This document shows, piece after piece, positions 8,201-60,633 of a stretch of DNA of 64,000 nucleotides. The position numbers and the translations under genes are program-made. Below the pieces are notes generated by a model. The model ran no database searches and was not told the origin of the DNA. It worked only from the letters and a program-made list of their open reading frames with translations. The stretch's first letter is position 1, and each line of letters opens with the position of its first letter. The stretch comes from Candidatus Flemingiibacterium sp. (GTDB lineage: Bacteria; Bacillota; Clostridia; Oscillospirales; CAG-272): NCBI GenBank assembly GCA_045578725.1, contig JAZNKS010000105.1:1423-65422 (forward strand), read 5' to 3'.

Positions 8201-9313
8201 ACGGTGGACAAGATCCACGAGGGCGAGAACAACACGCTGAAGCTTATCGAGAGCGGCCGCGTCGATTATGTCATCTCCACCTCCGCGAAGGGCCGTATCC
8301 CGACCCGCGACAGTGTAAAAATCCGCCGCAAGACGGTCGAGCGTGCAATCCCCTGCCTGACCTCCATCGACACCGCCAATGCGGTTGCCGACTGCCTCAA
8401 GAGCCGCTATTCGCAGATTTCAACTGAGCTTGTCAACATCAACGATATGCGTGCCGAGAAGGCTGCTCTTGAATTCACCAAGATGCAGGGCTGCGGCAAT
8501 GACTATATCTACTTCAACTGCTTTACCCAGAAGATTGACAATCCCGAAGGCCTGAGCATCCGGTTCGCTGACCGTCACTTCGGAATCGGCGGCGACGGTG
8601 CGGTTCTGATGTATCCCTCCGATGTAGCCGATGTCAGGATGCGTATGTTCAATCTGGATGGCACCGAAGGTAAGATGTGCGGCAATGCCGTTCGCTGTAT
8701 CGCCAAATACATCGTTGACAATAAGATTGCCGATAAGGATAATGTCACGGTAGAAACCCTCAGCGGCATCCGCGAGGTTCATGTCGACAAGGTCGATGGC
8801 GTGGTTACCTGGGCCACCGTCAATATGGGCAAGGCCGAGCTGAATCCGACCATGATCCCGGTCAAGCTCCCCGGTCATTCCGTAATCGGCGCCTTCACGA
8901 GCATCGCCGGCGGGCGCTACCGCATTACCTGCGTATCGATGGGCAATCCGCACTGCGTTGTCTTCTGCGACGATCTGAAGATGCACATTGATGAAATCGA
9001 TCTGGCTTCCATCGGCCCCAAGTTTGAAAACGATCCTCTCTTCCCCGAGCGGGTCAACACCGAATTCATCAAGATCCTGAACCCCACAACGCTCAAGATG
9101 CGCGTTTGGGAGCGCGGGTCAGGTGAAACCTTTGCCTGCGGCACCGGCGCCTGTGCGGCCGTTGTAGCGGCCGTAGAGAACGGCTACTGTCCGAAGGGCG
9201 AAGAGATCACAGTCAAGCTTCCCGGCGGCGATCTGAAGATCCGCTACACCGATGAAGCGGTTTACCTCTCCGGCGCCTGTGAAAAGGTCTACGAGGGCCG
9301 CGTCGAGCTGTAA
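5252..9313 (+). CDS. carB: carbamoyl-phosphate synthase large subunit fused to a C-terminal diaminopimelate epimerase (DapF, ~8468-9313)
   Basis: IGSGPIVIGQAAEFDY, two ATP-grasp halves and an MGS domain, then FTKMQGCGNDY...MCGNAVRC...SMGNPH...NTEF...RVWERGSGETFACGTGAC in one uninterrupted frame. Confidence 0.96.
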   Translation: MPLRKDIKKVMVIGSGPIVIGQAAEFDYAGTQACRALKEDGLEVVLVNSNPATIMTDNAMADEVYIEPLTLPTIKRIIEKERPDSLLSTLGGQTGLTLSMQLAKEGFLDKMGVKLLGANPETIDKAEDRQMFKDTMMKIGQPCIPSTVVNDLEAALDFAHANGYPLILRPAFTLGGTGGGIANNEDEFIEITNTGLHASPIHQVLVEKCVSGWKEIEFEVMRDSAGNVITICSMENVDPVGVHTGDSVVVAPAVTLSDKEYQMLRSAALSIIDELKIEGGCNCQFALHPESFEYAVIEVNPRVSRSSALASKATGYPIAKVAAKIAIGYTLPEILNAVTGTTYACFEPTIDYMVVKFPKWPFDKFVYAKRTLGTQMKATGEVMAIGTTFEQAMMKAVRGVEIGMTSLSHAKYRSLSDEDVASRLHNVDDERLFIVYEALRRGVSVDEIHSITMIDEWFLCKFLNLIAMEKQLASGVLDDALYLGAKKLGFPDKLIEELNGNKLPAGMHRSAVYKVVDTCAAEVSAETPYFYSTYDEENEAREFIDNHKDPAKKTVIVFGSGPIRIGQGIEFDYASVHCVWSLKKAGYDVVIVNNNPETVSTDFDTADRLYFEPLTPEDVMNIIETEKPYGVVVAFGGQTAIKLTKFMYENGVNILGTSADSIDAAEDRERFDALLEEHHIERPTGFTVMSTEEALTIANRVGYPVLMRPSYVLGGQNMIIAFNDDDIKEYMAIILANNIENPVLIDKYLMGIELEVDAICDGEDILIPGIMEHVERTGIHSGDSIAVYPSWNISDKLRAEILDCTKKLSVSLKIMGLVNIQYLIYKDQLYVIEVNPRSSRTIPYISKVTGVPMVDLATRCMLGEKLADMGYGTGIYKTSPYVAVKVPVFSFEKLMNVDNHLGPEMKSTGEVLGLASTREEALYKGLVAAGYTMKKNGGVFITVRDSDKSEIADTAKRFYDLGFELYATRGTARILDDYGLPVTTVDKIHEGENNTLKLIESGRVDYVISTSAKGRIPTRDSVKIRRKTVERAIPCLTSIDTANAVADCLKSRYSQISTELVNINDMRAEKAALEFTKMQGCGNDYIYFNCFTQKIDNPEGLSIRFADRHFGIGGDGAVLMYPSDVADVRMRMFNLDGTEGKMCGNAVRCIAKYIVDNKIADKDNVTVETLSGIREVHVDKVDGVVTWATVNMGKAELNPTMIPVKLPGHSVIGAFTSIAGGRYRITCVSMGNPHCVVFCDDLKMHIDEIDLASIGPKFENDPLFPERVNTEFIKILNPTTLKMRVWERGSGETFACGTGACAAVVAAVENGYCPKGEEITVKLPGGDLKIRYTDEAVYLSGACEKVYEGRVEL

Positions 9314-9330
9314 ACCATCCCCTAAATAAG

Positions 9331-9368
9331 AGAACCTCCCGCAGTTTTCATCTGCGGGAGGTTTTTTC
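9331..9368 (+). terminator. intrinsic terminator after carB-dapF
   Basis: AACCTCCCGCAG/CTGCGGGAGGTT stem followed by T-tract. Confidence 0.8.
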
Positions 9369-9405
9369 TGTAAATTACCGCCACAACCGTGACCTCTTCA
9401 AGACC

Positions 9406-9438
9406 AAAAAAGAAGCGCTGCTTTGCAGCGCTTCTTTT
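9406..9438 (-). terminator. intrinsic terminator of the large transporter operon (bidirectional shape)
   Basis: AAAAGAAGCGCTGC-ttt-GCAGCGCTTCTTTT perfect inverted repeat. Confidence 0.8.
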
Positions 9439-9453
9439 GATGGATCGATTTGA

Positions 9454-10512
9454 TTAACCAACGATACCGGAACGCTCGATACCGCCGATCAGGTATCTCT
9501 GAAGGAAGACATACATGATAAGCAGGGGAGCGAGGATCAGCAGACCGCAGGTGTTGCGGATCGCGGATTCGTAGAGGTTCTGGGCCGCATATACGGTATC
9601 CAGAGTCTTCGGAATGGCGATAACGTCGGGCATCAGTACGCTCGATGCCTTGGTGAAGAAGACGGTGGTGTAGAAGTTATCCGTCCACTGCCACGAGAAG
9701 GCAAAGAGGAAGATGGTGATCATCATCGGGACAGACAGCGGGAGAATGATCTGGATGAAGGTACGGAATACGCCGCTTCCGTCGATGTAAGCCGACTCTT
9801 CCAGCTCATCCGGTACGCCCTGGAAGAACTGACGCATCATGAAGATGTACAGACCGTTCTTAAAGGCGAGACCGCCGAGTGACAGGAGTGCCAGGGGCCA
9901 GTAGGAGTTATTGAGGTTCAGTGATGTAAACGGTATTACATTCAAGCCCTCAAACATACCGCCGCCGAGCAGATTGAAAATGCCAAGGATATCGAAGTAA
10001 CGGAACTTCATGAACATCGAAAGCTGGAGAGTTCTGTGAGGAACAACCATCGTAAAGATAACGAGGAGGAAGACCAGCTTGTTACCCTTGAACTTGAACT
10101 TGGACAGACCGTAGCCGATCAGGCAGCATACGAAGGTCTGAATCAAGCCGCAGAGTACAGAAAGGGTAAAGGTGTTCAGAAGTGCAGTCAAATACTTGTT
10201 TTCACTGATGATAGCCTTGTAGGTATCCAGCGTCGGGTACTTCGGGATCAGCTTAACCGTTACGTCAACGAAGTCCTCACGGCTCATGAAAGAGCCGGAG
10301 ATCTTCGCAAAGAACGGGAACAGAATGACGTACGAAATACCGATCAGCAGGACATACTTGAAGATGTTGACGACAACCGTCGTGAAGAAGTTGAGATTCA
10401 GAAACTTCGCCTTAAGACGTTCCTTCAGAGGGGTTCTTTCAAACTCAACCTTGATTGTGTTCTTGCTCTCCTTGGTAATGCGGGGAGCCTGCTGTACCTG
10501 TTGAGAATTCAT
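9454..10512 (-). CDS. carbohydrate ABC transporter permease (MalG-like), second pair
   Basis: Six TM segments; EAA loop ELEESAYIDGSG; ends GIERSGIVG. Confidence 0.92.
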   Translation of the reverse strand: MNSQQVQQAPRITKESKNTIKVEFERTPLKERLKAKFLNLNFFTTVVVNIFKYVLLIGISYVILFPFFAKISGSFMSREDFVDVTVKLIPKYPTLDTYKAIISENKYLTALLNTFTLSVLCGLIQTFVCCLIGYGLSKFKFKGNKLVFLLVIFTMVVPHRTLQLSMFMKFRYFDILGIFNLLGGGMFEGLNVIPFTSLNLNNSYWPLALLSLGGLAFKNGLYIFMMRQFFQGVPDELEESAYIDGSGVFRTFIQIILPLSVPMMITIFLFAFSWQWTDNFYTTVFFTKASSVLMPDVIAIPKTLDTVYAAQNLYESAIRNTCGLLILAPLLIMYVFLQRYLIGGIERSGIVG

Positions 10513-10524
10513 TGTTATCCCTCC

Positions 10525-11499
10525 TTAATCGCGTTTCTGATAGAAGACATAGCTGGAAAGCATAGCTGCGACAACACCGATGATCAACATAACGATCAGG
10601 AAGTAAATCCAGGACATTGCCGAGCTGAGTACGTTACCGCCAGCCTTATCGTATACCGTCGAGATGTAGCTCATGACCGTGTTGGACTGCGAAGTAAACG
10701 AGTCAATGACCGTATAAATCGAGTTAACCAGGATCATCGGGCTGATCATCGGGAAGGTAATCTTCCAGAAGGTTTCCCAGCCGGTTGCACCGTCAATCGA
10801 GCACGATTCGTAAATCGCGGGAGAGATGGACTGCAGACCTGCGAGGTAAATCAGCATCTGTACACCGGAACGGTTGATGATATTGTAGATGTTGTTAACC
10901 ATCGTAACAACGTACTCAACCAGCTCGGTACCGACCTTCATGTTCTGGAACAGAACCTCGATATCGACAGCCGACAGAATTTCCGATGTGGTATTCTGTC
11001 CGGAACCGTCCGAGATGCCTTCTTCGGTGTTCTCCATGTAGTCAAGCATGGTGTTCGCCTGGTCGATCTTATCGATCAGACCGGTCGAAATGATAACCGG
11101 AATAAAGAAGATTGCACGGAACGCTGCGCGTCCAACCATCTTCGTATTCAGTATGACAGCCATGAAGAGCGAGAAAATAACAATTGCGGGGATATCAAAG
11201 ATCAGCTGCTGAATACCGGATGTCAGCGTCTGAACGAACTGCGGGTCAACGAAGAGAGCTTCCTGATAGTTCTCCCAGCCGACGTATTCCAGCGTATAAC
11301 CGCCGCCCTGACCGATCTTGATCTTATTGAAGCTGTACTTGATCGAGTCAATAATGATCGGCAGGTAGATGATGATAAAGCTGATTACGAACGGGGATAC
11401 GAACACCCAACCCGCACGGGCTTTTTTCTTTTCAAGAGAGGCTCCGCGTCTTCTTTTCTTAGGCGCGCCAACTTTTGAAAGCTTTACTTCACTATTCAA
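10525..11499 (-). CDS. carbohydrate ABC transporter permease (MalF-like), second pair
   Basis: YVGWENY; LAGLQSISPAIYESCSIDGATGWETFWKITFP EAA region. Confidence 0.92.
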   Translation of the reverse strand: MNSEVKLSKVGAPKKRRRGASLEKKKARAGWVFVSPFVISFIIIYLPIIIDSIKYSFNKIKIGQGGGYTLEYVGWENYQEALFVDPQFVQTLTSGIQQLIFDIPAIVIFSLFMAVILNTKMVGRAAFRAIFFIPVIISTGLIDKIDQANTMLDYMENTEEGISDGSGQNTTSEILSAVDIEVLFQNMKVGTELVEYVVTMVNNIYNIINRSGVQMLIYLAGLQSISPAIYESCSIDGATGWETFWKITFPMISPMILVNSIYTVIDSFTSQSNTVMSYISTVYDKAGGNVLSSAMSWIYFLIVMLIIGVVAAMLSSYVFYQKRD

Positions 11500-11519
11500 T
11501 TTGTAACACCTCTCTTTAC

Positions 11520-14500
11520 TTATTTAACCTTTACGAAATCGAGGGCACCGATGGTATAGGTCTTACCGTTGTCCTCAACCGTAATCTCGAAGCTGTTGTA
11601 GTTCAGGATGAACGACTTGCCGCCCTCGTAAGTTACCTTAACAATGCGTCCGTCGTCGGAAGTGTACTTCGTGTAGACATATCCGTCGGGGGACACCTTC
11701 GGCTTCTCTTCCAGTACAGGAATTTCAACTACAGGAATGTCCTGGACCTCACGTCCGTCACGGGCTGCAAGGCGCTCTTCGAGCTTCCTGCGCTTTTCTT
11801 CCTTCTCCTTCGCAATCTTCTCAGCTTCAGCCTTAGCCTCTGCGATAGCATCAGCTGCTTCCTTATCGGCTGCAACCTCTTCAGCGGAAGGTACGCGCTC
11901 ACCCAGCAGGAACTCATGGCCTACGATCTTCTTATCCTGAAGATCGGCAAGAGCCTCGTTCAGAGTGGTGTAGAGCTCAACAACGTCTTCCTTCCAGATA
12001 TCAAAGGATACGGAGTAGTACTTGTTGAATTCAATGTCTTCCTTCAGAAGCGAAGTGTTCTGGCAGGAAAGCACGAAGTACATGGAAGCACCATTCTCAA
12101 TTGCCTTCAGAAGCTCATACTTGGTATCACCGGCCATGTTGATCGGCGTACCGGCAAAGTTGAGGCTTCCGTGGAGAACCATGCCCATGAAGGGTACGGC
12201 TTCGCTGGCGTTCGAGAAGCGGCTGGAGTCGAGGGCTACGTTGATCATATGATCAACATAGGGATAAACATAAGCGTTGCCGCCGTCAACCATGACACTC
12301 TTGTAATCCTCACTGATCTGTGCCAGCAGGTCGGTAGTGAATTCGCGGGAGTCCTCACGGTTGTAGGGATCCTTCTTATCAAAGTCGGAGTTCAGGTCGG
12401 TACCGAGGGTGGATACAGACAGGCCGCTGGGCGACAGCTTCTGCATTTCCTCGTTGAAATGCTCGTAGAAGTAATCAAATACGGAAGGCGAGATAGCCAG
12501 GGACCAGCCGCGGACGAAGTCCTGCAGCGTGGAGTCGTAATACCGCTTGGAGGTATAACGGTTGTCCATGGTCTTGACCAGGTGCTTTCTGTAGGTGATG
12601 CCGTCAAACATTTCGGTGGCACCAACGTTTACAAAGTCGAAGTCCGGATATACGCCGATACCGTTCTGTTCAGCGTAAGCAACAAATTCGGTGAATCCGT
12701 CATTGCCGCCGACTTCCTTTTCAAACTTGACCTTATACGGTACGATATCGTTCATACCGCCGTTGGCATAACCGGTCAGCTTGTAGTTAACATTGGTGAT
12801 TCCTGCTTCAGACAGGGTGGTGTACATATTCTTCAGGTCATCGAACGTGGTCAGGGGCTTGAGAACCTCAACCGGGATCGAAAGAATTCTTTCGATGGTG
12901 TTCAGAGCACCGAAGGTTTCGATGTACAGCGGGATGGAATCCTTTACGTCGGTAAGATCGGTGAGCTTACCTTCGTTCTTCAGATAATCTCTGTAAGCTG
13001 CTGCCATACCGACATAGCTTGCTTCGTAATAATCCTTCAGACCGGAATCCTTAGCCAGCTCTTCTTCGGTCAGCATGATGTACTTGATACGGTAGCTTCC
13101 GGTGTACTTACGCTCGGAAACAACGGTGTAGGTAGCATTCTGACCGACCGAGATGGACTCTGCCAGGTTGTAGGAGTCCTTCGGTCTGGGATAGAAGGTG
13201 GTGTAAACGGTGTTGTACTTGTGAAGGGTACCGCCGTGAACCGAGCTGATTTCAGCCAGCGAGTCACCTTCTTCAAGAATTGCGAGGAAGCCATTGGTGG
13301 GCTTCACATAGGTATCAGCAGGAACTTCAGGTGCAGCGGGAGCTGCGGGATCGGTTCCTTCGGTGGTTTCGGTATCAACCGTGGGAGCGGCATCCTCCGG
13401 AACAGCCTCAACGAGGTCGTTGGTTTCAACGACACCGTATACAGGAAGTCTCATAACTTCCTTGTGCTCACCGGATACAACCTGGTAAGCGTAGTCCTGA
13501 CCGTAAAGCTTACCGGTCAGAGTTACCGGCTTGGAGGTAACGTCCTCGAAGCGGATCAGAGTACCGGAACCGTCGGGAATGAAGGTGTAGCCTCTGTATT
13601 CCGCTGCGCCGGCGCCGAAGTAAGGCAGCAGGCTGATGTAGGTCAGCTGGTAGGTACTCTCGTCGAAACGGATACCGTTTGCGGGAAGACGTACATCCAG
13701 GGATCCGTCTTCATCCAGGGTGTATTCGAGGGAAAGACGGAAGAGAACCGGTGCACGGTCAGCACCTTCGTATTGAGTGATGCCATGGTCTTCTTCGAGC
13801 GTTTCGTAGGTGTACTCGGGGCAGTATTCCTTGATCCAAGCCTCGATCATGTTCAGCTCACGATCCGATGCCTGCGGGTCGAAGACGTAAATTGCCATCT
13901 CCTCGGTGATCGGGAACGTTGCGCGAAGCTCACGCTGTGCACGCTCTGTCAGAGTGGGATCATAGGGATCCTTCAGCTGATAGAACGCTTCGAACTTCTT
14001 CCAGGCGGGGCTGTCCTGGGGGATATTCGCCAGAATCAGTTCCTCATAGCGCTCTCTCTTGATGTGCTTCGGAACGAGCTTACGGGTTTCCTCACGGCCC
14101 ATCGTGTATTCGACGCGGACACCGTTCTTGATCTTCTTAACGTTGATCTGGCCTCTCTGGCACGCTTCGGTGAAGCTCAGCAGATTCAGCTCGGAGTCAT
14201 TGTCAGTATACTTGATGATGATCTGCGAAAGCAGCTCTTCCTTGACGGACGAAGACGATGCGGTCTGCGACACATCATAGGGGTTGGAGAAGAGGATCTG
14301 ACCGGTCTTGTTGTTTACATAAGCAAACTCACCGGAAACAGGCTCTACATAGAAAGCGTAGTTGCCTTTTTCAAGGTACTTCGTCATCGTAGCCAGCTTA
14401 GCCTGGGGGGTATCAAATACCTCAGTCAGGTAAGCGATGGTAGGCTTACCGGTTTCGGGATCAAGTCCCGGAACCAGCTCCTCTTCTGCCGCAAATGCGG

Positions 14501-14573
14501 GAACCGCGGATGCGAGCATACCTAAGACCATAACAACAGTCAGGAACGCCGATAATAATCTGAATTTTTTCAT
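11520..14573 (-). CDS. large secreted protein, DUF5696-like (predicted glycoside-hydrolase-like barrel)
   Basis: Sec signal peptide; LLPYFGA, GYTFIPDGSGTLI, LPVYG, GYANGG, VPFMGMVLHG and LLKAIENGA motifs recalled from DUF5696 proteins found in this gene context. Confidence 0.7.
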   Translation of the reverse strand: MKKFRLLSAFLTVVMVLGMLASAVPAFAAEEELVPGLDPETGKPTIAYLTEVFDTPQAKLATMTKYLEKGNYAFYVEPVSGEFAYVNNKTGQILFSNPYDVSQTASSSSVKEELLSQIIIKYTDNDSELNLLSFTEACQRGQINVKKIKNGVRVEYTMGREETRKLVPKHIKRERYEELILANIPQDSPAWKKFEAFYQLKDPYDPTLTERAQRELRATFPITEEMAIYVFDPQASDRELNMIEAWIKEYCPEYTYETLEEDHGITQYEGADRAPVLFRLSLEYTLDEDGSLDVRLPANGIRFDESTYQLTYISLLPYFGAGAAEYRGYTFIPDGSGTLIRFEDVTSKPVTLTGKLYGQDYAYQVVSGEHKEVMRLPVYGVVETNDLVEAVPEDAAPTVDTETTEGTDPAAPAAPEVPADTYVKPTNGFLAILEEGDSLAEISSVHGGTLHKYNTVYTTFYPRPKDSYNLAESISVGQNATYTVVSERKYTGSYRIKYIMLTEEELAKDSGLKDYYEASYVGMAAAYRDYLKNEGKLTDLTDVKDSIPLYIETFGALNTIERILSIPVEVLKPLTTFDDLKNMYTTLSEAGITNVNYKLTGYANGGMNDIVPYKVKFEKEVGGNDGFTEFVAYAEQNGIGVYPDFDFVNVGATEMFDGITYRKHLVKTMDNRYTSKRYYDSTLQDFVRGWSLAISPSVFDYFYEHFNEEMQKLSPSGLSVSTLGTDLNSDFDKKDPYNREDSREFTTDLLAQISEDYKSVMVDGGNAYVYPYVDHMINVALDSSRFSNASEAVPFMGMVLHGSLNFAGTPINMAGDTKYELLKAIENGASMYFVLSCQNTSLLKEDIEFNKYYSVSFDIWKEDVVELYTTLNEALADLQDKKIVGHEFLLGERVPSAEEVAADKEAADAIAEAKAEAEKIAKEKEEKRRKLEERLAARDGREVQDIPVVEIPVLEEKPKVSPDGYVYTKYTSDDGRIVKVTYEGGKSFILNYNSFEITVEDNGKTYTIGALDFVKVK

Positions 14574-14596
14574 TTACTATAACTCCTATCCTGTTA

Positions 14597-16720
14597 TTAC
14601 ATTCTGAATGTGATTTCGGTAATGATGCTGGAGATGAAGCTTACAATCTTGGCAAGCAGCGTGGAGAACAGAATGCCGATAAACATGATGATCGCCATAC
14701 CAACAATGGTACCAAGAGAAGTAAGAATGTTCTTCGAGAAGGTGTAGTCGTGTGTTACCATCATGCCAAAGAAGATCAGCAGACCTGCCCAGATGAAGGC
14801 AAAGGATACAAGCAGATTGATGATTGTAGCTTCGCTTTCAATGGAGAAGTTGGAGAGGATAACAGACGGGATAATGAGCAGCGGAATCGGAACAAGCGAG
14901 TAGCAGGTTGCAATCCAGATATCCTTGAAGCTTCCTTCACCGTCGAACAGCGTGGTCAGACACCAGTTGGCAACCGCCCAGAGAAGGACAGGAACCAAAA
15001 CGCCGGTGAGCTGAACGATGATGGTGGACATACCCGGATAAGGATTGAAGATGTAGCCGGTACCAACATCCTGATAGTAGAAGGTCAGAACGGCAAGAGC
15101 AACCCAAACGAGTGAAGCTCTTACGGAACCGCGGTACTCATGCTTCAGATCCCAGAAACCGTCGAACGGATGGAAGATAACGTGGTGAGCGTAAACGAGC
15201 TCTTCCCAGAAAGTCTTTCTTCCCTTCTTGAGCTGTGTCTTCTTATTGAGTTTGGTTGCATATTTGCCGAAGAGGACAAGTAAAACAACCAATGCAATAA
15301 CAATAATCGGGATCAGAATAATGTACTTGGAGATCCAGTTCTTACGGATTTCCTTGAAGGATTCGGAATAGTTGGTCGTGTCATAAGCAGACTTGTAGTA
15401 CTCCAGGGACTCTTCGTAGTCAGCACTTCTGTACAGGGACTTACCGATTCCGATGTAGGCAGCATCGAAGTTGTTGTTTCTCTTCAGGATTTCGGTCCAG
15501 TAGTCAACGGTCGTATCATAGTTACGCTCGTTGGTGTTGCGGATCGCATCCAGAAGCAGATCGCCGTACTCGGTGCGGCGGAATACCGAAATGCTGTCAG
15601 ATGTTTTGTCGAGGATCAGAATGTCCGTATCGAGATAGGTGATCGCTTCAATCGACTGAATGCTGCCCAGCTGCATACCCTTGTCGCCGAAGATGAACAG
15701 CAGGTTGCCGTCTTCGTCGTAGGTGTATACCTTCTGACGCTTTTCGTCGATAATAGACCAGGTCTTTTCCGGACCGATTGCAACGTCGATGATCTTGGAA
15801 GGACCGGTGATCTCGGAAGTGGACAGGTTGGAAATGTTTACTTCACCGCCGGGACCGAAGAATCCGTTACGCTTCATGATGTCCGAACCGGCCGTATTGA
15901 GCATCTTGACCGGAGCGTAGGTACCATCCTTGCTGGTGATCGCTGCCTGCTGCGAGCTCTCGTTAACCGAGGAAGTGGTTACATAGATGAAGCCGTTTTC
16001 ATCGATCGTACAGTTGTTGAACTCGGTGGAAACGTACTGCTGCGAAAGCTTACGCTGTTCCTCGGTCTGGAATCTTCTCCAGATGATATCCAGAGCGCTG
16101 ATCGTTACCTTCTGAGCACCGATGAAGCCCTGGAAATCGCCGTCTTCATTGATGGCGATGATACCCATGTAGGTGGTGGAGGAAACAACGTAAATACGTC
16201 CGTAAGCGTCAACAGCCAGTGCAACCGGCTTATAGATCGAACCGGCCGGGAATACGTCCGCATCCGGCTCTTCAATAATCTTATAGAAAGAACCGTCGCG
16301 CTCGAACATAACAATACGGTTGTTGTCGGTGTCCGCTACATAGATCTTATCTTCCGTAACGAAGACACCGGAGGGGCTCTTCAGAGAGTCCGGAACGCCG
16401 TTTAAGTTCGTAAATTCCTTGATGTAGAACTTGAGCTTAAAATACCGGTCAAGAACTACGATACGGTTGTTGGCTGCGTCTGCGATGTAGATGTTCTTCT
16501 GCTTATCGACAACGAGGTCGCGGGGATCATCAATCGCAGGCTCTACACCCATGTAAGCGGAATCGATGGTGCGGTCGGGTGTATAAGCATCCGGGGACAT
16601 CAGAGCGAAGCCGTCGATGGAATAGGTGTAGGTGGAGTAAGGCGTAATAGCGCTTACCGGGAGGCAGCCGATGACGAGCATCAGGCAGGCTGCGAGGGCA
16701 AGTATTCTCGAAATTTTCAT
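14597..16720 (-). CDS. NHL-repeat beta-propeller / TPR / Yip1-domain membrane protein
   Basis: Signal peptide; repeated IYIADxxNNRIV NHL units; TPR-like AYIGIGKSLYRSADYEESLEYY; TM helix; FHPFDGFWDLK followed by 5-6 TM Yip1 domain. Confidence 0.82.
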   Translation of the reverse strand: MKISRILALAACLMLVIGCLPVSAITPYSTYTYSIDGFALMSPDAYTPDRTIDSAYMGVEPAIDDPRDLVVDKQKNIYIADAANNRIVVLDRYFKLKFYIKEFTNLNGVPDSLKSPSGVFVTEDKIYVADTDNNRIVMFERDGSFYKIIEEPDADVFPAGSIYKPVALAVDAYGRIYVVSSTTYMGIIAINEDGDFQGFIGAQKVTISALDIIWRRFQTEEQRKLSQQYVSTEFNNCTIDENGFIYVTTSSVNESSQQAAITSKDGTYAPVKMLNTAGSDIMKRNGFFGPGGEVNISNLSTSEITGPSKIIDVAIGPEKTWSIIDEKRQKVYTYDEDGNLLFIFGDKGMQLGSIQSIEAITYLDTDILILDKTSDSISVFRRTEYGDLLLDAIRNTNERNYDTTVDYWTEILKRNNNFDAAYIGIGKSLYRSADYEESLEYYKSAYDTTNYSESFKEIRKNWISKYIILIPIIVIALVVLLVLFGKYATKLNKKTQLKKGRKTFWEELVYAHHVIFHPFDGFWDLKHEYRGSVRASLVWVALAVLTFYYQDVGTGYIFNPYPGMSTIIVQLTGVLVPVLLWAVANWCLTTLFDGEGSFKDIWIATCYSLVPIPLLIIPSVILSNFSIESEATIINLLVSFAFIWAGLLIFFGMMVTHDYTFSKNILTSLGTIVGMAIIMFIGILFSTLLAKIVSFISSIITEITFRM

Positions 16721-16731
16721 ATTTACCCTCC

Positions 16732-17604
16732 TTAGTCTTTCATACCCGAAGAGCCCATCGTTTCAATGATGTTACTCTGCGAGATAACGAATACGGCAAT
16801 CGGAACGGCCATCATGATAACCGTGGATGCAGCAGCCGCACCGGCACGGGCGATACCGCCGTTAACGATCTGGCCGATCGCGTAGTTAAAGGTCTTCAGC
16901 TGCTCGGAATAGATGTAGATCGAGCCGCCGGCATTCCACAGACCCTGGAAGGAGTAGATGATCAGGGTCAGCCAGGCCGGCTTAACCATCGGCATCGCAA
17001 TCCGTAAGAAGGTGTAGAATTCGGATGCACCGTCCAGACGCGCCGATTCAAGAACGGAGTCCGGAACGGAGGTTTCCATGAAGTTCTTCATGAGGTACAG
17101 ACCGAGGGAAGTACACCAAGCCGGAACGACCAGAGCAAGGTAGGTATCAACCCAGTGAAGGGTACTCATGGTGAGGAAGTTTGCGATACCGGTAACGGTG
17201 GAGTTGAACATCAGCGAAAGAACGATGACTTCAAAGATCCATTTGCGGCCGGGGAAGTTGATCTTCGACAGCGCATAAGCAGCCAGCGAGGAGAGGATCA
17301 GGTTACCGGCTGTACCGGCTACGGAAATGAATACCGTGTTGAAGATGTAACGCGAGAAAGGTACCCAGGAGGTTCCCATCAGGCGGAACAGGTCAGCGAA
17401 GTTCTTGAACGTAGGCGAAACAACGTAGAAGCGCGGCGGGAACATCCACAGCTCATCCAGCGGCTTCAGCGACTGCATGACCGTGTAGAGCATCGGGATG
17501 AACATGAAAGCGCCGAGGAGGATCAGCATCGTATTGATGCCGATATCGCCGCCAACCGAACGGTTGAGGACAACTTTATGTTTTCTGGTTCTTAACTTTG
17601 CCAT
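16732..17604 (-). CDS. carbohydrate ABC transporter permease (MalG-like), first pair
   Basis: SLKPLDELWMFPP; VPDSVLESARLDGASE EAA loop. Confidence 0.93.
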   Translation of the reverse strand: MAKLRTRKHKVVLNRSVGGDIGINTMLILLGAFMFIPMLYTVMQSLKPLDELWMFPPRFYVVSPTFKNFADLFRLMGTSWVPFSRYIFNTVFISVAGTAGNLILSSLAAYALSKINFPGRKWIFEVIVLSLMFNSTVTGIANFLTMSTLHWVDTYLALVVPAWCTSLGLYLMKNFMETSVPDSVLESARLDGASEFYTFLRIAMPMVKPAWLTLIIYSFQGLWNAGGSIYIYSEQLKTFNYAIGQIVNGGIARAGAAAASTVIMMAVPIAVFVISQSNIIETMGSSGMKD

Positions 17605-17605
17605 A

Positions 17606-18565
17606 TTATTGTCCCACCTTCGATAATAATTTTTTGATAATCAGATTGGAACCGACCATGATTACGAACAGGACAACCGCGATGCAGGAGGAGTAACCAA
17701 CCTCAAAACGCTGTCCGCCGTAGTCCTCAAGGTGGTGCATGATCGTATGCGCCGCGTAGTCAACGGACGGGAAGCCGGCCAGAGCCGTTACAACGCCGCC
17801 GAAACCGAACGAGCTGGTAATCGACATAACCGCACCGAACATCAGCTGAGGCTTCATGGTAGGAAGGGTGATGTACCAAAGCTCCTGCCAACGGTTGCGG
17901 ATACCGTCAACCGCGCCTGCTTCATAGAGCGACTTGTCGATCGTCTGAAGACCGGCGATAAACGAAAGGAACGAGGTACCGAGCGAGGTCCACAGTGCAA
18001 CTACGATACAAAGAGGCATAACGTAGTCGGCATCGCGGAACCAGAGGATCGGGTCGGTGATGAAGCCCAGCTCCATCAGCCACGCATTGACGTAACCGTA
18101 GGAGTCCGCCGAGAAGAGGATGGACCAGATCAGGTAAACCGAACCGGAAATGGAAGGGGCATAGAATACCAGCGTTACAATAGCGCGGATTCTCGGAGAA
18201 AGCTCGTTAATGAACCAAGCAATCAAAAGGGACAGCAGGTAGGAAACCGGGCCCGTGATCGAAGCGAACACCAGCGTATTCTGACAAGCCGTCATGAAAA
18301 TATCATCATCAAGGAAAAGACGGATATAGTTATCCATGAAGATGAACTCAGGAAATTCGAGCAGGTTGAACTGCGTGAAGCTCAGAACAATGGACAGAGC
18401 AACCGGGAACACCGTGAAGATCAGGAACAGAATAAGGAACGGAGCAATCATGATGTATGCCGTCTTATTCCGAGCCATTTCCTTCAGTGTCCACTGAAGC
18501 CTTGTCATGTCTTTTCGAGCTGTCGGCTTCGAAGTTCCCTTTGCAGCCGCTGCATTCTGTGACAT
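17606..18565 (-). CDS. carbohydrate ABC transporter permease (MalF-like), first pair
   Basis: AGLQTIDKSLYEAGAVDGIRNRWQELWYITLP; start moved to ATG 18565 (RBS AAGGAG). Confidence 0.92.
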   Translation of the reverse strand: MSQNAAAAKGTSKPTARKDMTRLQWTLKEMARNKTAYIMIAPFLILFLIFTVFPVALSIVLSFTQFNLLEFPEFIFMDNYIRLFLDDDIFMTACQNTLVFASITGPVSYLLSLLIAWFINELSPRIRAIVTLVFYAPSISGSVYLIWSILFSADSYGYVNAWLMELGFITDPILWFRDADYVMPLCIVVALWTSLGTSFLSFIAGLQTIDKSLYEAGAVDGIRNRWQELWYITLPTMKPQLMFGAVMSITSSFGFGGVVTALAGFPSVDYAAHTIMHHLEDYGGQRFEVGYSSCIAVVLFVIMVGSNLIIKKLLSKVGQ

Positions 18566-18610
18566 GTGCGTTCTCTCCTTATAACAGATTTTGTTGATCC
18601 TGTCGCGGGG

Positions 18611-18645
18611 CCGTGGGGATTCATCCACTTGAACGAATCCCCGGC
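18611..18645 (-). other. intercistronic stem-loop after the solute-binding protein gene
   Basis: GGGGATTC-N12-GAATCCCC, no U-tract. Confidence 0.6.
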
Positions 18646-18670
18646 TCACGCATTGGCAGGAGTGTGTTTA

Positions 18671-21634
18671 TTATTCGGCGCCCTGAGCAGCTTTTGCTTC
18701 TCTGTCGGCCAACGTTTCACCAAGCTCAAGCGTATCAAGGTCAAACTCTTTACGCTTTCTGGTAATTTCCTTATTGATATCATCGATGTAGCCAAGGAGT
18801 TCATCAACCGGGTCAGCAGCATCGTTGTAAGCAGCAAGGAATGCGAAGCTTACATAACGGGCGATAATGTAACCGCCGGGCATTTCAGGAATCGTTGCCA
18901 GGTTGTTGTACTGAGCAAGAATGTTCTTAAGGTCATTCGTGGACCACGGGAGGGCCTCAAGAGCTTCCTTATTTGCCGTTGCGTACATGGAGCCCATACC
19001 GACGATGGATACCATCTCGTTTGCGTAGGTGGACTGGGTTTCCGCGGTGGTGTACCAATCCATGAACTTCCATGCATTTTCCTGCTTCTCGCAGCCGTTC
19101 ATCATAATCATAGACGTTACGGTGGAGATGGCCGTATTGTTGATGTTGCCTTTTTCGTCTTCCATACCAACGACCGGAACGAATTCCCAAAGGTCGCGGA
19201 TTTCCGTTGCGAAGATCGACAGCTGGTTGTAAGCACCGATGTAATCCGCAAAGCCGATCGGCATTTCACCGGTTCTGAAACGGTTTGCGAAGTCGTAGGT
19301 AACAGGGAACGAATACTGTGTAAAGAAGGAGCACAGCTTATCGAATGCTTCCAGTGCAAGGTTGGAATCCAGGTTGATTCTCATACCTTCGTCAGCATAA
19401 AGCTCGCCGCCCATCTGATACAGGAACATATTCAGACCGCCAAGCTCACCGGGGATACCAACGAGCATATTGTTGTACTGAAGAACCGGTACAATAGCCA
19501 TCAGATCATCCCAAGTCTTCGGAATGTCGATACCGAGCTCAGCAAAAACGTCCTTGCGGTAGAAGAGCATATTGAAGGACTGCGTTTCCGGCAGACCGTA
19601 GGTCGTACCGTACAGGGACAGCGGAACAATCGCAGATTCCGAGAACCGGGAGGTAACCTCATCAAAGGTATCGAAATCATTCAGCGGCTGAACCGCATTA
19701 CGGATCGCGTACTGAACCGGGATGTCCTGACCGTTTGACAGAGCAACGTCAGGGCCGGTACCCGACAGCGTAGCCGGGAGCAGCGTACCGCCGGTAACAA
19801 GTTTCAGTCTTACACCAATGTTGGTTTCGGGCGTAAACTTGTTATCAATCATCGAACGGATAACCAGGGACTGGTCACGTCCGGTAGGAGTCCATACATC
19901 AATTACGTCTGCTTCATTCAACTCAATGGTAGCGCCGAGGTTGGAGTAGTCCGTAAAGAAGGACATAATGAAGGAGCTGATTTCAAAGGCAGCCGCTTCA
20001 AAGAAGTTGGCATTTGCCTTCGGGAGCTTGCTGTCTGCAGGCTGGATCGAAATATAGTCGAAGAGCAGCGGCTGATTTCTTACCGTGTTGAGCCAGGTAC
20101 CCAGAGTACCGATGTAGCTCTTCAGGTTACCCATGTTCTTAGCAACCTCGTCCTCATCCGTAGACATCAGCTTCAGGATACGGGCGATGTTGTCCAGCGT
20201 TGCGGTGTTGCTTCCCTTGACACCGTTGATCTCCGTGATCAGTTCGGAGATGGTGGTCAATTCAAGATACTGCGCGTAAAGATCCTTGATCGTATCGGGA
20301 ATCAGCGTACGGAAGTTGTAGTCACGGTACTCATCAGGATCCGCACCGGTAATCTGAAGAATCTTCAGATAGTCCGAGTTGATCGAAGACAGTACATCCT
20401 GAACGCGGCCGATAATCGAGCTCATGCCGCCGAGAACAACTTCAAACTGAATGGTATATGTCTTACCCTCTTCAAAGTAGAAACGGAAGGTCTGCTCACC
20501 GTCTGTCAGTGCTGCAGCCTGCCAGTCATCCGAGAAGTTAAACTGGAGATAATTCGCCTCGCTGAAGGGGATTTCGCCATTGATGCGAATCCGGCGGGAC
20601 GTGTACATACCGGAAAGGTCGGACTGCTTGTAGCGAGGAACGATATCATACAGACCGCTCTTCTCACAGGTAAAGGAATATTCAACCCACTGACCAACGG
20701 TCTGCCACTTCGTACTGCCGAGCGTATTCAGCTTGGACAGCGACGGGCTCTGCGGCTGGGTCAGTGCAGAAGATCTGTCATTCTGCGGATAGATCGTCTG
20801 GTCGGAAGTAGCATCCGGCATTTCAGCCTGAATGATAATCGGCTCAGCGCCTTCTGCAGCCGTGTATCCCTTGCTCTGGTAATCAGCCAGAACCTCAGCA
20901 TAGGTCGGAAGATCCTCATAAGGATACAGCGTGATCGACTTGATTATGATTTCCTCACGGGAAGACTCCAGCGAGATGGTATGTTCGCCCTTTTCGAAGA
21001 CGACTTCATACGGAAGCATATCATATCCGGTCGAGTCCGAGAAGTAGTAGGTTCTCCACTCCGGGTTCTGTGCCTTCTGAGCCTTGATATCATTTCCGTT
21101 GATGTCCGTCTTGAAGGAGCGATTTCCCTCTTCGTCCAAGAGATACTCGTCTTTCCATACCTTCGGAATGGACATATAGCGTGCGCCCTTGAAGGGATAC
21201 TTGTCATCCACACGCAGTCTGCGTTCGATCGCCGTAGACTTACCGACTACCGGGTAGTATTCGATTTCAATCGCATACTTTGCGGTAGCAGGGATCGAAA
21301 CATCCCATGTAACCGTGCCGTCAGCCGGGATGAAGAGCGACTTACCCGAAGAACCTTCGTAGTTCGTCTCCACCTTGACCTTTGCATCGGTCTTTTCCTT
21401 GTTGTAATTTGCTGCTTCGATTGTAATTGGTGATTTGCCTCTGGGTACGTCAGCGTTGCGCGCTGCGTAATCGGCATAGGATTCCGCATTGAGAAGTTCA
21501 CGAACCTCTGCAATGTCATAGCTCACGAAGGAGCTTTCGGGATCCACCTCGGCCGCGCTCACAACGAACGCAGAACCGAGCATCATCAATGACAAAACAG
21601 CAGCAATTAACCTTGTTAATACTGTTTTTCTCAT
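18671..21634 (-). CDS. very large extracellular solute-binding protein (N-terminal CBM-like beta domains + C-terminal family-1 SBP domain)
   Basis: SPase-I-type signal (VSA-AE); C-terminal ~400 aa with GTGPDVAL, YGLPETQSFNMLFYRKDVF, PKTWDDL, AWKFMDW; RBS AGGAGG. Confidence 0.88.
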   Translation of the reverse strand: MRKTVLTRLIAAVLSLMMLGSAFVVSAAEVDPESSFVSYDIAEVRELLNAESYADYAARNADVPRGKSPITIEAANYNKEKTDAKVKVETNYEGSSGKSLFIPADGTVTWDVSIPATAKYAIEIEYYPVVGKSTAIERRLRVDDKYPFKGARYMSIPKVWKDEYLLDEEGNRSFKTDINGNDIKAQKAQNPEWRTYYFSDSTGYDMLPYEVVFEKGEHTISLESSREEIIIKSITLYPYEDLPTYAEVLADYQSKGYTAAEGAEPIIIQAEMPDATSDQTIYPQNDRSSALTQPQSPSLSKLNTLGSTKWQTVGQWVEYSFTCEKSGLYDIVPRYKQSDLSGMYTSRRIRINGEIPFSEANYLQFNFSDDWQAAALTDGEQTFRFYFEEGKTYTIQFEVVLGGMSSIIGRVQDVLSSINSDYLKILQITGADPDEYRDYNFRTLIPDTIKDLYAQYLELTTISELITEINGVKGSNTATLDNIARILKLMSTDEDEVAKNMGNLKSYIGTLGTWLNTVRNQPLLFDYISIQPADSKLPKANANFFEAAAFEISSFIMSFFTDYSNLGATIELNEADVIDVWTPTGRDQSLVIRSMIDNKFTPETNIGVRLKLVTGGTLLPATLSGTGPDVALSNGQDIPVQYAIRNAVQPLNDFDTFDEVTSRFSESAIVPLSLYGTTYGLPETQSFNMLFYRKDVFAELGIDIPKTWDDLMAIVPVLQYNNMLVGIPGELGGLNMFLYQMGGELYADEGMRINLDSNLALEAFDKLCSFFTQYSFPVTYDFANRFRTGEMPIGFADYIGAYNQLSIFATEIRDLWEFVPVVGMEDEKGNINNTAISTVTSMIMMNGCEKQENAWKFMDWYTTAETQSTYANEMVSIVGMGSMYATANKEALEALPWSTNDLKNILAQYNNLATIPEMPGGYIIARYVSFAFLAAYNDAADPVDELLGYIDDINKEITRKRKEFDLDTLELGETLADREAKAAQGAE

Positions 21635-21828
21635 TAATCTTTCCTCCTGCCAAGATTTTTACTTTGAAGGGAACAGAAACGCTTAGACGGCTCTGTCCAG
21701 GCGTTGATCGCTGTGTCGGCAATCCGCCGGTGTGGCTCAACATCGACCGCGCCATGACAAAGCAATGAACCAACCGCACGGCAGCCGGGACGCGCATCCA
21801 GACTATCCGCCGATTTTTTCATACAAAT

Positions 21829-21857
21829 ATAATACCATAATGTTAACGAAAAGTCAA
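21829..21857 (-). promoter_or_regulatory. sigma-A promoter of the transporter operon
   Basis: TTGACT-17-TATTAT with TG extension, giving a leader of about 185 nt. Confidence 0.7.
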
Positions 21858-22326
21858 GAGCGGCATTTTTTTCGTAGTTTTTATTTTTCGCTCCCTTTTC
21901 ATCTCTGTGCGGTGCGAATTTCGTCATTTCGCGTTTCAACGAAGCTTCCGGCACCGGGAGAACCGCGTTTTTCATCCGTAAAACGCCGTATGGGTAATTA
22001 TATTTTACCTTACAACGCCTTTATCTCCCGTTATTTCGGAGCTATTTTGCATTTCAAGGCGGGAGACTTTGATTATGTAATTCTTGTTCACCTTTCATGC
22101 CTGTACCCCGCCCTGGCTTGCGGTATGCCAAAACCCCTGTTTTTTTGTGCACCTTACACAAATATTTCACCGGATTTTCTACATGTGCATTTTTCTTACA
22201 TTCTTTTCCGCGTTTTTGGGCACTCATTTGTGCACCATGCACATTTTTGAGATTTTCGCGGGATATTCACACCATAAATCCCCAATATTTGCCATTTTTC
22301 TTTTGAATCCGCCGCTCCCGATGCAT

Positions 22327-22359
22327 AAACAAAAGGCGGCGCTGCGGCCGCCTTTGTTT
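22327..22359 (-). terminator. terminator after iscU
   Basis: AAACAAAAGGCGGC...GCCGCCTTTGTTT inverted repeat. Confidence 0.7.
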
Positions 22360-22377
22360 AGCAGGAATCTCTTTGTA

Positions 22378-22809
22378 TCAGTGCTTCTTGCTGCAGGTTG
22401 CGCAATGACCGTCGCAGCCGTCCAGCAGATTGTGCTTGATGCCCTTCTTGTCATAGTAATTGGCAATCGCCGACTTGACAGCCTCCTCGGCCAGGACCGA
22501 GCAGTGGATCTTCTGGGGCGGAAGTCCGTCCAGCGCCTCCACAACCGCCTTGTTGGTCAGCTTGAGTGCTTCTTCGACTGTCTTGCCCTTGATCATCTCG
22601 GTTGCCATCGACGAGGTTGCGATGGCCGCGCCGCAGCCGAAGGTCTTGAACTTGATATCCTCGATCACGCCGTCATCGCTGATCTTCAGATACATCTTCA
22701 TGATATCACCGCAGGTTGCGTTGCCGACTTCACCGACAGCATCTGCGTTTTCGATTTCGCCTACATTGCGGGGATTGGCGAAATGATCCATTACTTTCTC
22801 GCTGTACAT
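22378..22809 (-). CDS. iscU: Fe-S cluster scaffold IscU/NifU
   Basis: MYSEKVMDHFANPRNVG, GNATCGD, FGCGAAIA, KIHCSVLA. Confidence 0.96.
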   Translation of the reverse strand: MYSEKVMDHFANPRNVGEIENADAVGEVGNATCGDIMKMYLKISDDGVIEDIKFKTFGCGAAIATSSMATEMIKGKTVEEALKLTNKAVVEALDGLPPQKIHCSVLAEEAVKSAIANYYDKKGIKHNLLDGCDGHCATCSKKH

Positions 22810-25287: not shown

Positions 25288-25473
25288 CGCCGCATCCTCC
25301 GAAAAAAGACTACCTTATTATTATATCACATTTCGTCCGATAATTCAAATCTTTTACGGCATTTCCCTTGAAAATTCCATCGAAAATATTGTATAATATT
25401 TATGGAAAACGCCAACCTTTTCAATAATTCCGCCACTTATATGGTACAGCCGCAGAATAAAGGAGGGAAATGC

Positions 25474-27090
25474 ATGGACAAAGCTGTGTGCGATCAACTG
25501 ATTCTTCAGTATACAAATAAGCTGTTCGCATTTGCTGCTGCGAAGACAAGCTCCCTCGAGCGCGCCGAGGAGCTGGCTTCCCGGATCACGCTGGAGGTCT
25601 ATGCTTCCCTTCTGCGGCAGGATGAAATCCGCAATGTGAATGCCTATATCGGCCGCATTGCACGGAATGTCTATGCCCGCTATACCGATGAAAACCGGAT
25701 TCATCGTTGGACGGATCTTGACGGACTGGAGATTTCATCCGGCGAGGATTTCACCGAATCCGTCATCCGGGACGAAATGGCCTCCAGACTGCGTCTGGAA
25801 ATCGCCTATCTTTCCGAGATGCGCCGCAAGGTGCTGATCCAGCACTATTATCAGAACAAGAAGCTGTCCGACATCGCAAAGATGCTGTCCATTCCCATCG
25901 GAACGGTGAAATGGCATCTGAGCGGCGCCCGGGACGAGCTGAAAGAAAGGTTGGATACCATGCATACCATCGGAAATCTGGGACTTTGTCCCATCGAACT
26001 CACCAATCTCGGCCATGACGGCCACCCGGGAAGCCGGGGCGACACGGCGGATTTTCTGGCCCGGCGGCTCACGCAGAATATCGCTTACGCGGCCTATCAT
26101 CAGGCCCTCACCGTCAATGAAATTGCCGATGAGCTCGGCGTTTCCCCGCTTTTTGTCGCCGACGAGGTCGCCGTGCTGGAGGAATACGGCTTCATGGATA
26201 AGCTGCCCGGCGGCAAATACCGCACCAACATTTACATCAGCGAGATGACAAAGGAATGGGATGCGAAGTTGCATGACATTTTCTGCCGCTATGCCGCCAT
26301 CCTCCGCCGGGACTGGGTTCCGGCCGTGATCGAAACGCTGAAGGGATTCGATCCTGCCCGGCTTTACATCCCGGACAAGGACGAAAATCTCTGGCTCTGG
26401 TCCGGCATCACCTGGGCGCTCGGCTCCATCCGGGTCACGGATTCCGGAAAATATTCCGCCGATTCGTATGCCGTCAGCCGTAAGGACGGCGGCCGGTATA
26501 TCGCATGGGCTTCGGTGAAGACGTCCTTCACGCCCGACTACGATGCCTCCCGCTACAACGCCTGCGGCAATATGACCCGCGGATCCGACAAATATCCGAT
26601 CTTTTCCTGGCAGCTGAATACCGTCTACGATACCCGCGAGATGGGCTGGCGGGAGAATCTCTACACCGACTATGAATCGCTGTACGAATTCTATACCGGG
26701 CGGATTCGGAAGAACGAGGCAAGCATCGAAAAGTATCAGCGCCTGCGGAATAAGGGATATCTGCGCGCAGATGATACGGTCAACCTGATCGTTGTCGAGC
26801 ATGGCGGTGCCAATCGGGATGGCGGGCTGACCTCCGTGCTCCCTGCGGCCAATCCCGAAACCGACAAAATCGCGCGGGATCTGGCCGAGGAGATTTACGC
26901 GGTCAACTCGCCGCATTATCCCGAGCATATGCGGCCTCTCTGCCGTGCGTATGCCGAATCCTATAACGGCAACGGTATCCGTATGCGGGTTCTCGAGCAG
27001 CTGGTTCAGGAAGGAATCCTGCAGCTCCCGAAGCCCGAACAGGCCGCCGGGCTGAATACCCTGCTGTTTGCCGATACCCTTCCCCGCTGA
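25474..27090 (+). CDS. ECF-type sigma-70 factor with long soluble C-terminal extension
   Basis: Region 2 (LFAFAAAKTSSLERAEEL...YIGRIARNVY) and region 4 (LSDIAKMLSIPIGTVKWHL); ATG 25474 after AAGGAGG; upstream TTGAAA-18-TATAAT at 25368-25397. Confidence 0.85.
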   Translation: MDKAVCDQLILQYTNKLFAFAAAKTSSLERAEELASRITLEVYASLLRQDEIRNVNAYIGRIARNVYARYTDENRIHRWTDLDGLEISSGEDFTESVIRDEMASRLRLEIAYLSEMRRKVLIQHYYQNKKLSDIAKMLSIPIGTVKWHLSGARDELKERLDTMHTIGNLGLCPIELTNLGHDGHPGSRGDTADFLARRLTQNIAYAAYHQALTVNEIADELGVSPLFVADEVAVLEEYGFMDKLPGGKYRTNIYISEMTKEWDAKLHDIFCRYAAILRRDWVPAVIETLKGFDPARLYIPDKDENLWLWSGITWALGSIRVTDSGKYSADSYAVSRKDGGRYIAWASVKTSFTPDYDASRYNACGNMTRGSDKYPIFSWQLNTVYDTREMGWRENLYTDYESLYEFYTGRIRKNEASIEKYQRLRNKGYLRADDTVNLIVVEHGGANRDGGLTSVLPAANPETDKIARDLAEEIYAVNSPHYPEHMRPLCRAYAESYNGNGIRMRVLEQLVQEGILQLPKPEQAAGLNTLLFADTLPR

Positions 27091-45534: not shown

Positions 45535-45560
45535 AGGCATCCTCCTTTATTGAGAGAAAA

Positions 45561-60492: not shown

Positions 60493-60633
60493 TTTTTCTC
60501 CTCTTTCTGTACGTTGATCATTCCGGTTGTTTTCCCGCACACGGCAAAAGGATACCGCGTGCTTGCATTAAGTATAGCAATTTTCCCCCGGAAAGTCAAG
60601 TCTTTTCTTCCGGAATTTCAGAGCAATCGCAAC

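Follow-up and report, generated by a model that had tools for sequence, protein, structure and literature searches.

A widespread operon with two permease pairs as a candidate shared gate for the orphan sugar-binding lipoproteins of Candidatus Flemingiibacterium

Glycan import in Gram-positive bacteria of the gut and soil, which operate without SusCD, is poorly known. The DNA analysed here, referred to as the window, comprises 64,000 nucleotides (nt) of contig JAZNKS010000105.1 from a Candidatus Flemingiibacterium sp. assembly (GCA_045578725.1) and carries, within positions 9454-21634 and wholly on the minus strand, seven open reading frames (ORFs) that form one operon and encode two permease pairs together with three large proteins. 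This operon is very probably a glycan importer of the CUT1 family that draws on a shared ATPase. With a probability of roughly 60%, it is an oligosaccharide importer acting as a shared candidate gate for the 125 orphan sugar-binding lipoproteins encoded elsewhere in the genome.

The seven genes and their products

In the order of transcription, the operon begins with a giant solute-binding protein (SBP) of 987 residues (18671-21634), followed by permease F1 of the MalF/UgpA type (17606-18565, 319 residues), permease G1 of the MalG/UgpE type (16732-17604), an NHL-TPR-Yip1 protein of 707 residues (14597-16720), a secreted DUF5696 protein of 1017 residues (11520-14573), permease F2 of the MalF type (10525-11499) and permease G2 of the MalG type (9454-10512). 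The intergenic gaps are 105, 1, 11, 23, 20 and 12 nt, counting F1 from ATG 18565, which has a ribosome site and is the most likely start, the longest ORF running instead from GTG 18649. Each permease matches BPD_transp_1, and the assignment to CUT1 is made on the two MalF/MalG-type pairs and the EAA loop present in all four, which in F2 reads YESCSIDGA. Neither the ORF list nor Pfam reveals an ATPase or a regulator gene inside the operon.

A sigma-A-type promoter with an extended -10 element is predicted at 21829-21857 (minus strand; TTGACT-17-TG-TATTAT), agreeing with the consensus at 10/12 positions with the TG present; promoter-like sites in the whole scan occur at chance level (14 against 14.5 expected), and the motif recurs 5' of the giant SBP gene in 18/18 close loci examined. 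An intrinsic terminator composed of a 14-pair stem and a T run stands at 9408-9438 (minus strand; z -5.7), whilst a stable hairpin in the gap between the giant SBP and F1 genes (18611-18644, minus strand; z -4.1, scored over 108 nt) likely sets the ratio of SBP to permease mRNA. An Rfam search of 9000-22500 returned no RNA family. The seven ORFs with their sizes and short gaps, the single promoter and terminator, the four EAA loops and the lack of an internal ATPase or regulator are all as an earlier reading of the window from its letters (the first-pass annotation) had described them. Two RNA runs contained small shares (0.20 and 0.05) and, compared at 85% likeness, contigs of run X1 that are about 91-98% alike yielded listed pieces on six of the seven genes (none being listed for F1), three of which span gene junctions. 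These contigs are those of relatives and come without a DNA control, and they show neither transcription nor co-transcription of the operon.

The giant SBP (model pLDDT, predicted local distance difference test, 87.9) begins with a signal peptide that lacks a lipobox; then come two sandwiches resembling CBM35/CBM6, a helical bundle and, at about residues 575-965, a MalE-type SBP domain. Pfam recognizes only SBP_bac_1, at residues 595-867, and the family-1 (MalE fold) domain superposes on 5ysb with Z 36.5 and a root-mean-square deviation of 2.8 over 370 aligned residues. A profile of the N-terminal part reaches 5x7g at E 1.6e-8 and CBM_35 in 8 of 26 members, all weakly; because whole-protein fold searches are filled by the SBP domain, the CBM-like assignment rests on these weak profile matches. 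In the ESM Atlas, the same part leads to unnamed clusters and, at 0.75, to GH115_C. In both the giant SBP and the DUF5696 protein, the signal peptide is the sole hydrophobic segment and a lipobox is lacking, so that each would need a partner in order to stay on the cell.

The NHL-TPR-Yip1 protein, in which Pfam recognizes NHL and Yip1, is composed of an NHL propeller, a TPR segment (residues 398-452, suggested by its likeness to designed TPR proteins), a single membrane helix at 467-485 and a Yip1 membrane domain; in some relatives it is divided between two genes. A complex prediction covering the Yip1 part with F2/G2 gave a contact score of 0.55, against 0.02 for the best control, with runs agreeing in at least 89% of contacts and a partner pLDDT of at least 65. 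In calibration, 116 of 157 solved pairs and 2 of 215 mismatched pairs attained the mark; those attaining it with a score of 0.60 or below were only 18 of the 157 solved pairs, together with both mismatches. As the score of 0.55 falls in that range, contact between the Yip1 domain and F2/G2 is weakly predicted. Multimer prediction, a check that the first-pass annotation had itself put forward, thus lends slight support, at this one interface, to its proposal of a single physical complex.

The DUF5696 protein (Pfam E 4e-146; model pLDDT 88.1, predicted TM-score 0.84) adopts the fold of glycoside hydrolase (GH) family GH129. The top ten Foldseek matches are all GH129 chains (5opq, E 9e-29, TM-score 0.68 over the target), and profile matches also lead to this family, the identity to which is 11%; a direct sequence search of the PDB returned nothing significant, the relationship being revealed by profile and fold only. 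The first-pass annotation saw no recognizable hydrolase in the operon, which is partly right, since the GH129 fold makes this protein a recognizable glycosidase homolog. In NagBb, D435 is presumably the catalytic nucleophile and E478 the acid/base (positions counted from the sequence); in a profile alignment bridged by a GH129-like protein of this genome, these positions fall on Thr722 and Asp763, and a third acid on Asn608. Across 74 DUF5696 sequences the nucleophile position is Asp in 18, and the acid/base position is Asp in 40, Glu in 16 and another residue in 18. An Asp nucleophile is paired with Glu in a single sequence, and with either Asp or Glu in 11. To judge from these residues, the protein is probably not an enzyme of the GH129 type but rather a non-catalytic binding or docking subunit, whilst some of its relatives could be enzymatically active. 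The genome's GH129-like proteins (C122:7572-9293, C18:4846-6264 and C117:14223-15977) score on the DUF5696 Pfam model, which therefore mixes probable enzymes with the cassette subunit; the YxD motif is kept in all three and an acid/base motif was found in two, and at least two of the genes lie near orphan SBPs. Residues 897-960 of the DUF5696 protein form an insert near the C-terminus, a long charged helix with an acidic linker, that is seen in this clade and absent in distant relatives.

Conservation of the cassette

The first-pass annotation described this gene order as recurrent, and so it is. The full seven-gene order is present in 34 of 40 close loci, the closest of which belong to Candidatus Flemingibacterium and other uncultured Clostridia, and the remaining six end at a contig edge with the order unbroken. 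The cassette is also common: DUF5696 occurs in 35 of 60 genomes sampled at the level of the order, where 18 of 19 regions hold the full order and one is cut, and, at the level of the phylum, a sample of 300 other genomes contains 21 with full-length DUF5696. Amongst distant loci (38 of 40 strong DUF5696 matches listed, three of them cut by contig ends), the core of NHL/Yip1, DUF5696, F2 and G2 is kept in 35/35 uncut loci. The half formed by the giant SBP, F1 and G1 lies upstream of this core in 14 of the 35, downstream in five, in one of which F1 was undetected, and outside the fetched stretch in 16. As the order of the core is fixed and the giant-SBP half is mobile or missing, the cassette consists of two halves, of which the one containing the accessory proteins is the fixed one. 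In one distant locus (L059:5062-7921), G1 is interrupted, its two ORFs standing about 1.6 kb from each other and enclosing a further ORF, in an insertion-like arrangement. The operon is a widespread, accessorized variant of a CUT1 importer, the gene order of which is in print and the unity and accessory parts of which were not found described.

In distant loci, the 3' neighbour of the cassette is often an ordinary SBP, followed by enzymes of many families, which among the 59 genes scanned of 84 listed include GH26, GH43, GH10, GH42, GH31, GH28, GH5 and pectate lyase. The separability of the halves and the four intact EAA loops would suit two independent, ordinary CUT1 importers accompanied by a scaffold and by DUF5696 as an active surface glycosidase, all serving one glycan through the giant SBP, with the orphan lipoproteins unrelated. 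This agrees with the published reading of a locus in Caldicellulosiruptor bescii, where, in the accessible text, XloEFG, AxoFGE and a putative GH129 are all xylan-induced (PMC8579813), and with the 11 DUF5696 sequences that keep an Asp nucleophile and an acid/base. Such an arrangement is nevertheless unlikely here: Thr occupies the nucleophile position, at which Asp is seen in a minority of sequences and is combined with Glu only once; the enzyme families adjoining cassettes are too varied for one enzyme specificity; and F2/G2 have no SBP of their own in the operon, whilst 125 related SBPs have no permeases.

It is likewise improbable that the operon encodes one obligate seven-chain machine threading long glycans through all four permeases, to which orphan SBPs may hand over cargo. 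The prevalence of the full order at close and order level speaks for it, as do the weak Yip1-F2/G2 prediction and the presence of the giant SBP in 10/10 tested genomes having DUF5696. The copy numbers do not: in five multi-copy genomes, DUF5696 and giant SBP genes number 10/4, 11/4, 8/4, 11/6 and 20/11, fragments included, an excess of about 2:1 that rules out one-to-one pairing, and the giant-SBP half lies outside the fetched stretch in nearly half of the uncut distant loci. Sharing between loci could explain both the copy excess and the missing half. These findings speak against the fixed seven-chain machine envisaged by the first-pass annotation, and the reading of the operon as a shared gate, which requires F2/G2 to accept separately encoded receptors, is taken up below.

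The orphan lipoproteins and their relatives

The lack of a binding protein for F2/G2 in the operon led to a count of SBPs across the genome. An iterated profile identifies 125 lipoprotein SBP paralogs (at least 250 bits), 121 of them full length, spread over 60 contigs with a median identity of 29%. Their nature as SBPs is indicated by SBP_bac_1 matches in 9 of 48 members and by a profile match to an arabino-oligosaccharide SBP (E 2.5e-9), a single orphan SBP searched against the PDB giving no match. Permeases are scarce by comparison, with 13 matches to PF00528 (ABC-importer permease) in this 95% complete genome, amongst which are the four of the operon, one sugar-type pair (C125) and one polyamine-type pair. 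The C125 pair comes with an ATPase and a binding protein of its own, the latter outside the orphan family. Of the four family members that share a contig with a permease gene, the nearest is a broken copy at a distance of 2.9 kb, and the other three are at least 7.6 kb away. A lone MsmX-type ATPase (C106:22-1275), with Walker A/B, signature and OB_MalK, would be the partner of the operon permeases. Six orphan SBP genes stand in tandem at C131:807-10524 (L087), and seven more lie within 17 kb on C86.

An AraC gene lies no more than two genes away from 61 of the 125 orphan SBPs, whereas amongst the 2333 other genes the same is true of 349. The genome holds 123 AraC-type genes by a local profile, nearly the number of the orphan SBPs. 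A scan of 105 of 138 eligible neighbours in 20 regions found 22 AraC genes and glycosidases that include GH2, 4, 28, 29, 36, 39 and 78. Each of the 15 neighbouring enzymes checked lacks a signal-peptide-like N-terminus, with a hydropathy of at most 2.04 against 2.5-3.2 in the secreted cassette proteins. A degrading enzyme and a regulator, both required of a Gram-positive polysaccharide utilization locus in the accessible text of PMC13543919, are absent from the operon locus and stand with the orphan SBPs instead. The first-pass view of a conserved Gram-positive glycan import operon, with an MsmX-type ATPase and import before breakdown, gains support from these findings. Its statement that the glycosidases of the window lack signal peptides stands for GH29 (44104-45540) and GH123 (33720-35369), neither having a hydrophobic N-terminus, but its GHL10-like gene was not confirmed; this is possibly the ORF at 59002-60540 (minus strand; 512 residues), which has no signal peptide and no Pfam match.

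The orphan family is akin to SBPs adjoining the cassette elsewhere. Run on five distant genomes, a profile of 48 orphan members picks out SBPs that adjoin the cassette. From a genome with 94 SBP_bac_1 matches (G141), it finds three of 69 scored candidates, the top two of which (121 and 101 bits) adjoin its two cassette copies, the third scoring 43 bits. Matches stand directly after G2 in 6/6 cases in G171, as do the top match in G086 and the only one in G188. Two further profiles were compared, one built on 19 cassette-linked SBPs and the other on 30 generic SBPs, and each of the 121 orphans tested obtains its higher score on the former; the generic set comes from the top Pfam matches of two genomes and is biased to canonical ones. 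A FastTree tree places the orphans and 20 of 22 cassette-linked SBPs on one side of a branch with support 99. The Chloroflexus SBP 22hh reaches only 35 bits on the clade profile.

Genome content follows the same pattern. Amongst the 60 order-level genomes, the orphan family is present in 11, each with one DUF5696 gene, and in 0/25 without DUF5696. A broader profile (E 1e-25), to which two of the 60 contributed a sequence, matches 29 of 35 DUF5696 genomes and 2 of 25 without, the two being at background level. Across the phylum, 16 other genomes have matches better than E 1e-50 and all possess DUF5696, although 11 of the 16 helped to build the profile and five DUF5696 genomes have no such match. 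SBP genes outnumber permease genes in several of these relatives (65/11 in G330, 31/15 in G305, 89/16 in G353, 16/8 in G311 and 24/12 in G319). In G330, a permease pair adjoining a family member was considered as its channel and rejected, as it belongs to a polyamine-type operon with its own binding protein. At two loci (L051 and L080; G171:C20 and G200:C9), a single cassette is followed, immediately behind G2, by a tandem array of at least five SBP genes, which would be a small, linked form of the proposed hub. A second, divergent expansion is seen in G319 (L157-L162), a genome from another family, where 24 SBPs stand beside one cassette; since these score higher on the cassette-linked profile than on that of the orphan family described here, they may represent an independent expansion.

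That the orphan lipoproteins are surface lectins or sensors, or use secondary carriers, sharing with cassette SBPs a common ancestry only, is the least probable reading, for whilst 28/125 have a multi-helix membrane neighbour and their Pfam SBP scores are weak, the other 97 have none, the regulators and enzymes encoded next to them are cytoplasmic and depend on sugar that has entered the cell, and the family was found in none of the 25 order-level genomes without DUF5696.

Around the operon itself lie carAB/dapF and nifU/nifS-type genes. At 5252-9313 (plus strand), a carbamoyl-phosphate synthase large chain is fused at its C-terminus to diaminopimelate epimerase (1353 residues), and at 25402-27090 (plus strand) lies an ECF-type sigma factor of 562 residues with a C-terminal extension of about 370 residues.

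A shared importer and its place among known systems

In the preferred reading of a shared gate, an orphan lipoprotein, switched on by the adjoining AraC regulator, would capture its own oligosaccharide and dock on F2/G2. This docking site is suggested because such SBPs elsewhere adjoin the core half, often directly after G2, even without the giant SBP. The Yip1 domain would pack against F2/G2 and the propeller would hold the DUF5696 protein, whilst the giant SBP would serve F1/G1. The orphan ATPase would drive both channels, and cytoplasmic glycosidases would complete the breakdown. It is likely that the orphan proteins feed the importer of the operon, and on balance the accessory proteins are favoured as physical subunits of it. 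Only tentatively, and against somewhat adverse odds, may the operon be taken to represent a kind of ABC importer not yet described, in which the Yip1-propeller protein as scaffold and an inactive subunit of GH129 fold would make one permease pair blind to substrate and so open to more than 100 receptors. If one channel set serves 125 SBPs with a median identity this low, the usual picture, in which a permease pair is matched to a receptor or two, does not apply in this genome; the existence of so many orphan lipoproteins would be explained and DUF5696 would have a role. The proposal is testable in a genetically tractable thermophile with the same gene order, and a receptor-agnostic importer would be useful in the engineering of sugar uptake.

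Several observations weigh against this reading. The catalytic positions come from a bridged profile alignment rather than superposed coordinates, and a shift of one residue would bring Ser721 or Leu723 to the nucleophile position. The orphan profile finds no SBP in G019, where the cassette-adjacent SBP is generic; as 6 of 35 cassette genomes also lack an SBP of the clade, the link is not obligate. Two of the 22 linked SBPs fall outside the tree group and two long-branch rows fall inside it, and in G355 the numbers of permease genes and family SBPs are about equal (11 and 10). Amongst solved structures, 6rjy matches the broad profile best, at 144 bits, and we take it to be the SBP of an ordinary transporter with three genes; scores of about 150 bits occur in genomes without the cassette, so that there is a gradual passage from the clade to ordinary SBPs. 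Some of the genomes searched had also contributed to the profiles, and the large searches scored 5 to 28 candidates per genome; because the genomes are kin, the counts are not independent and no statistical test is given. The multi-helix membrane proteins found no more than two genes away from 28 of the 125 orphans include members of MFS, SSS and MATE and one histidine kinase, and the genome is 95% complete.

The closest published counterpart is xloEFG-X-GH129-axoFGE of C. bescii (Athe_0174-0181), a xylan-induced locus interpreted as a pair of CUT1 transporters with an NHL protein and a putative GH129 (PMC8579813). By annotation, its order is the same: an SBP, two permeases, an NHL protein (Athe_0177), a putative GH129 (Athe_0178) and two permeases, with no ATPase at either locus. 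The first-pass annotation held the order to lack a mechanistic description; it has been published for C. bescii, where the genes were not treated as one unit. In C. bescii, an ordinary SBP and xylanases follow, XynR/AraR regulate, and the accessible text assigns no role to X or GH129 (PMC8579813). Here, by contrast, no SBP, enzyme or regulator adjoins, and the 125 related SBPs are elsewhere. Deletion of msmK in C. bescii impairs growth on oligosaccharides, the shared MsmK powering CUT1 importers (PMC8579813). In their accessible parts, PMC12285236, PMC5658599, PMC10492685, PMC11212667 and PMC12838199 deal with regulation, expression and the shared ATPase and assign no function to the accessory genes; NHL, Yip1 and orphan do not occur in the available text of a review on glycoside transporters from 2026 (PMC13543919), and PMC13731917 mentions two sets of ABC transporters, its main text containing neither NHL nor Yip. 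Within the open-access literature searched (listings and the starts of abstracts), no description of the cassette or the orphan family was found, nor does the term DUF5696 occur there, subscription papers lying outside the search.

In common with MalEFGK2 and other CUT1 systems (Transporter Classification 3.A.1.1) that rely on an orphan MsmX/MsmK, the operon has the same permease types, EAA loops, a MalE-fold domain and an orphan ATPase with the MalK OB fold. It differs in its two permease pairs, its 987-residue SBP with CBM-like domains and no lipobox, and its two fixed accessories. Some 125 receptors take the place of the usual one or two, two SBPs being described for athe_0595-0598 (PMC12838199, accessible text). 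The DUF5696 protein shares its fold with GH129 (NagBb, 5wzn; ZgGH129, 5opq) and GH101, which NagBb is reported to resemble in the accessible text of PMC8106489. In contrast to GH129, the nucleophile and a third acid are not conserved in this DUF5696 protein, and the acid/base position appears to be changed as well (Asp for Glu); the protein is secreted and tied to permease genes. A Yip1-family protein as an accessory of an ABC transporter has a precedent in Bacillus YknWXYZ, in which YknW modulates transporter assembly; by the accessible account, that system is an exporter of the MacB type and includes a membrane fusion protein (PMC4887032), whereas in the operon the Yip1 domain carries a propeller-TPR ectodomain and its gene adjoins those of importer permeases.

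The first-pass annotation likened the operon to SusCD, an analogy that fits poorly, as about 125 receptors with genes elsewhere seem to share a single channel set. SusCD receptor and channel pairs multiply together, a pair for each substrate. No Pfam match to a TonB-dependent barrel or a SusD lipoprotein exists amongst the seven proteins, which have no homology to SusCD. What the two have in common, from the available text on Bacteroidota, is the capture of glycans at the surface before intracellular breakdown and the many glycans used per organism (PMC13543919). In this genome the receptors multiply and the channel set is single, whilst other lineages multiply the cassette (8 to 20 DUF5696 matches). 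If the shared gate is real, the bacterium would acquire a new glycan by duplicating a lipoprotein gene along with the regulator and enzyme that accompany it, a strategy opposite to that of SusCD.

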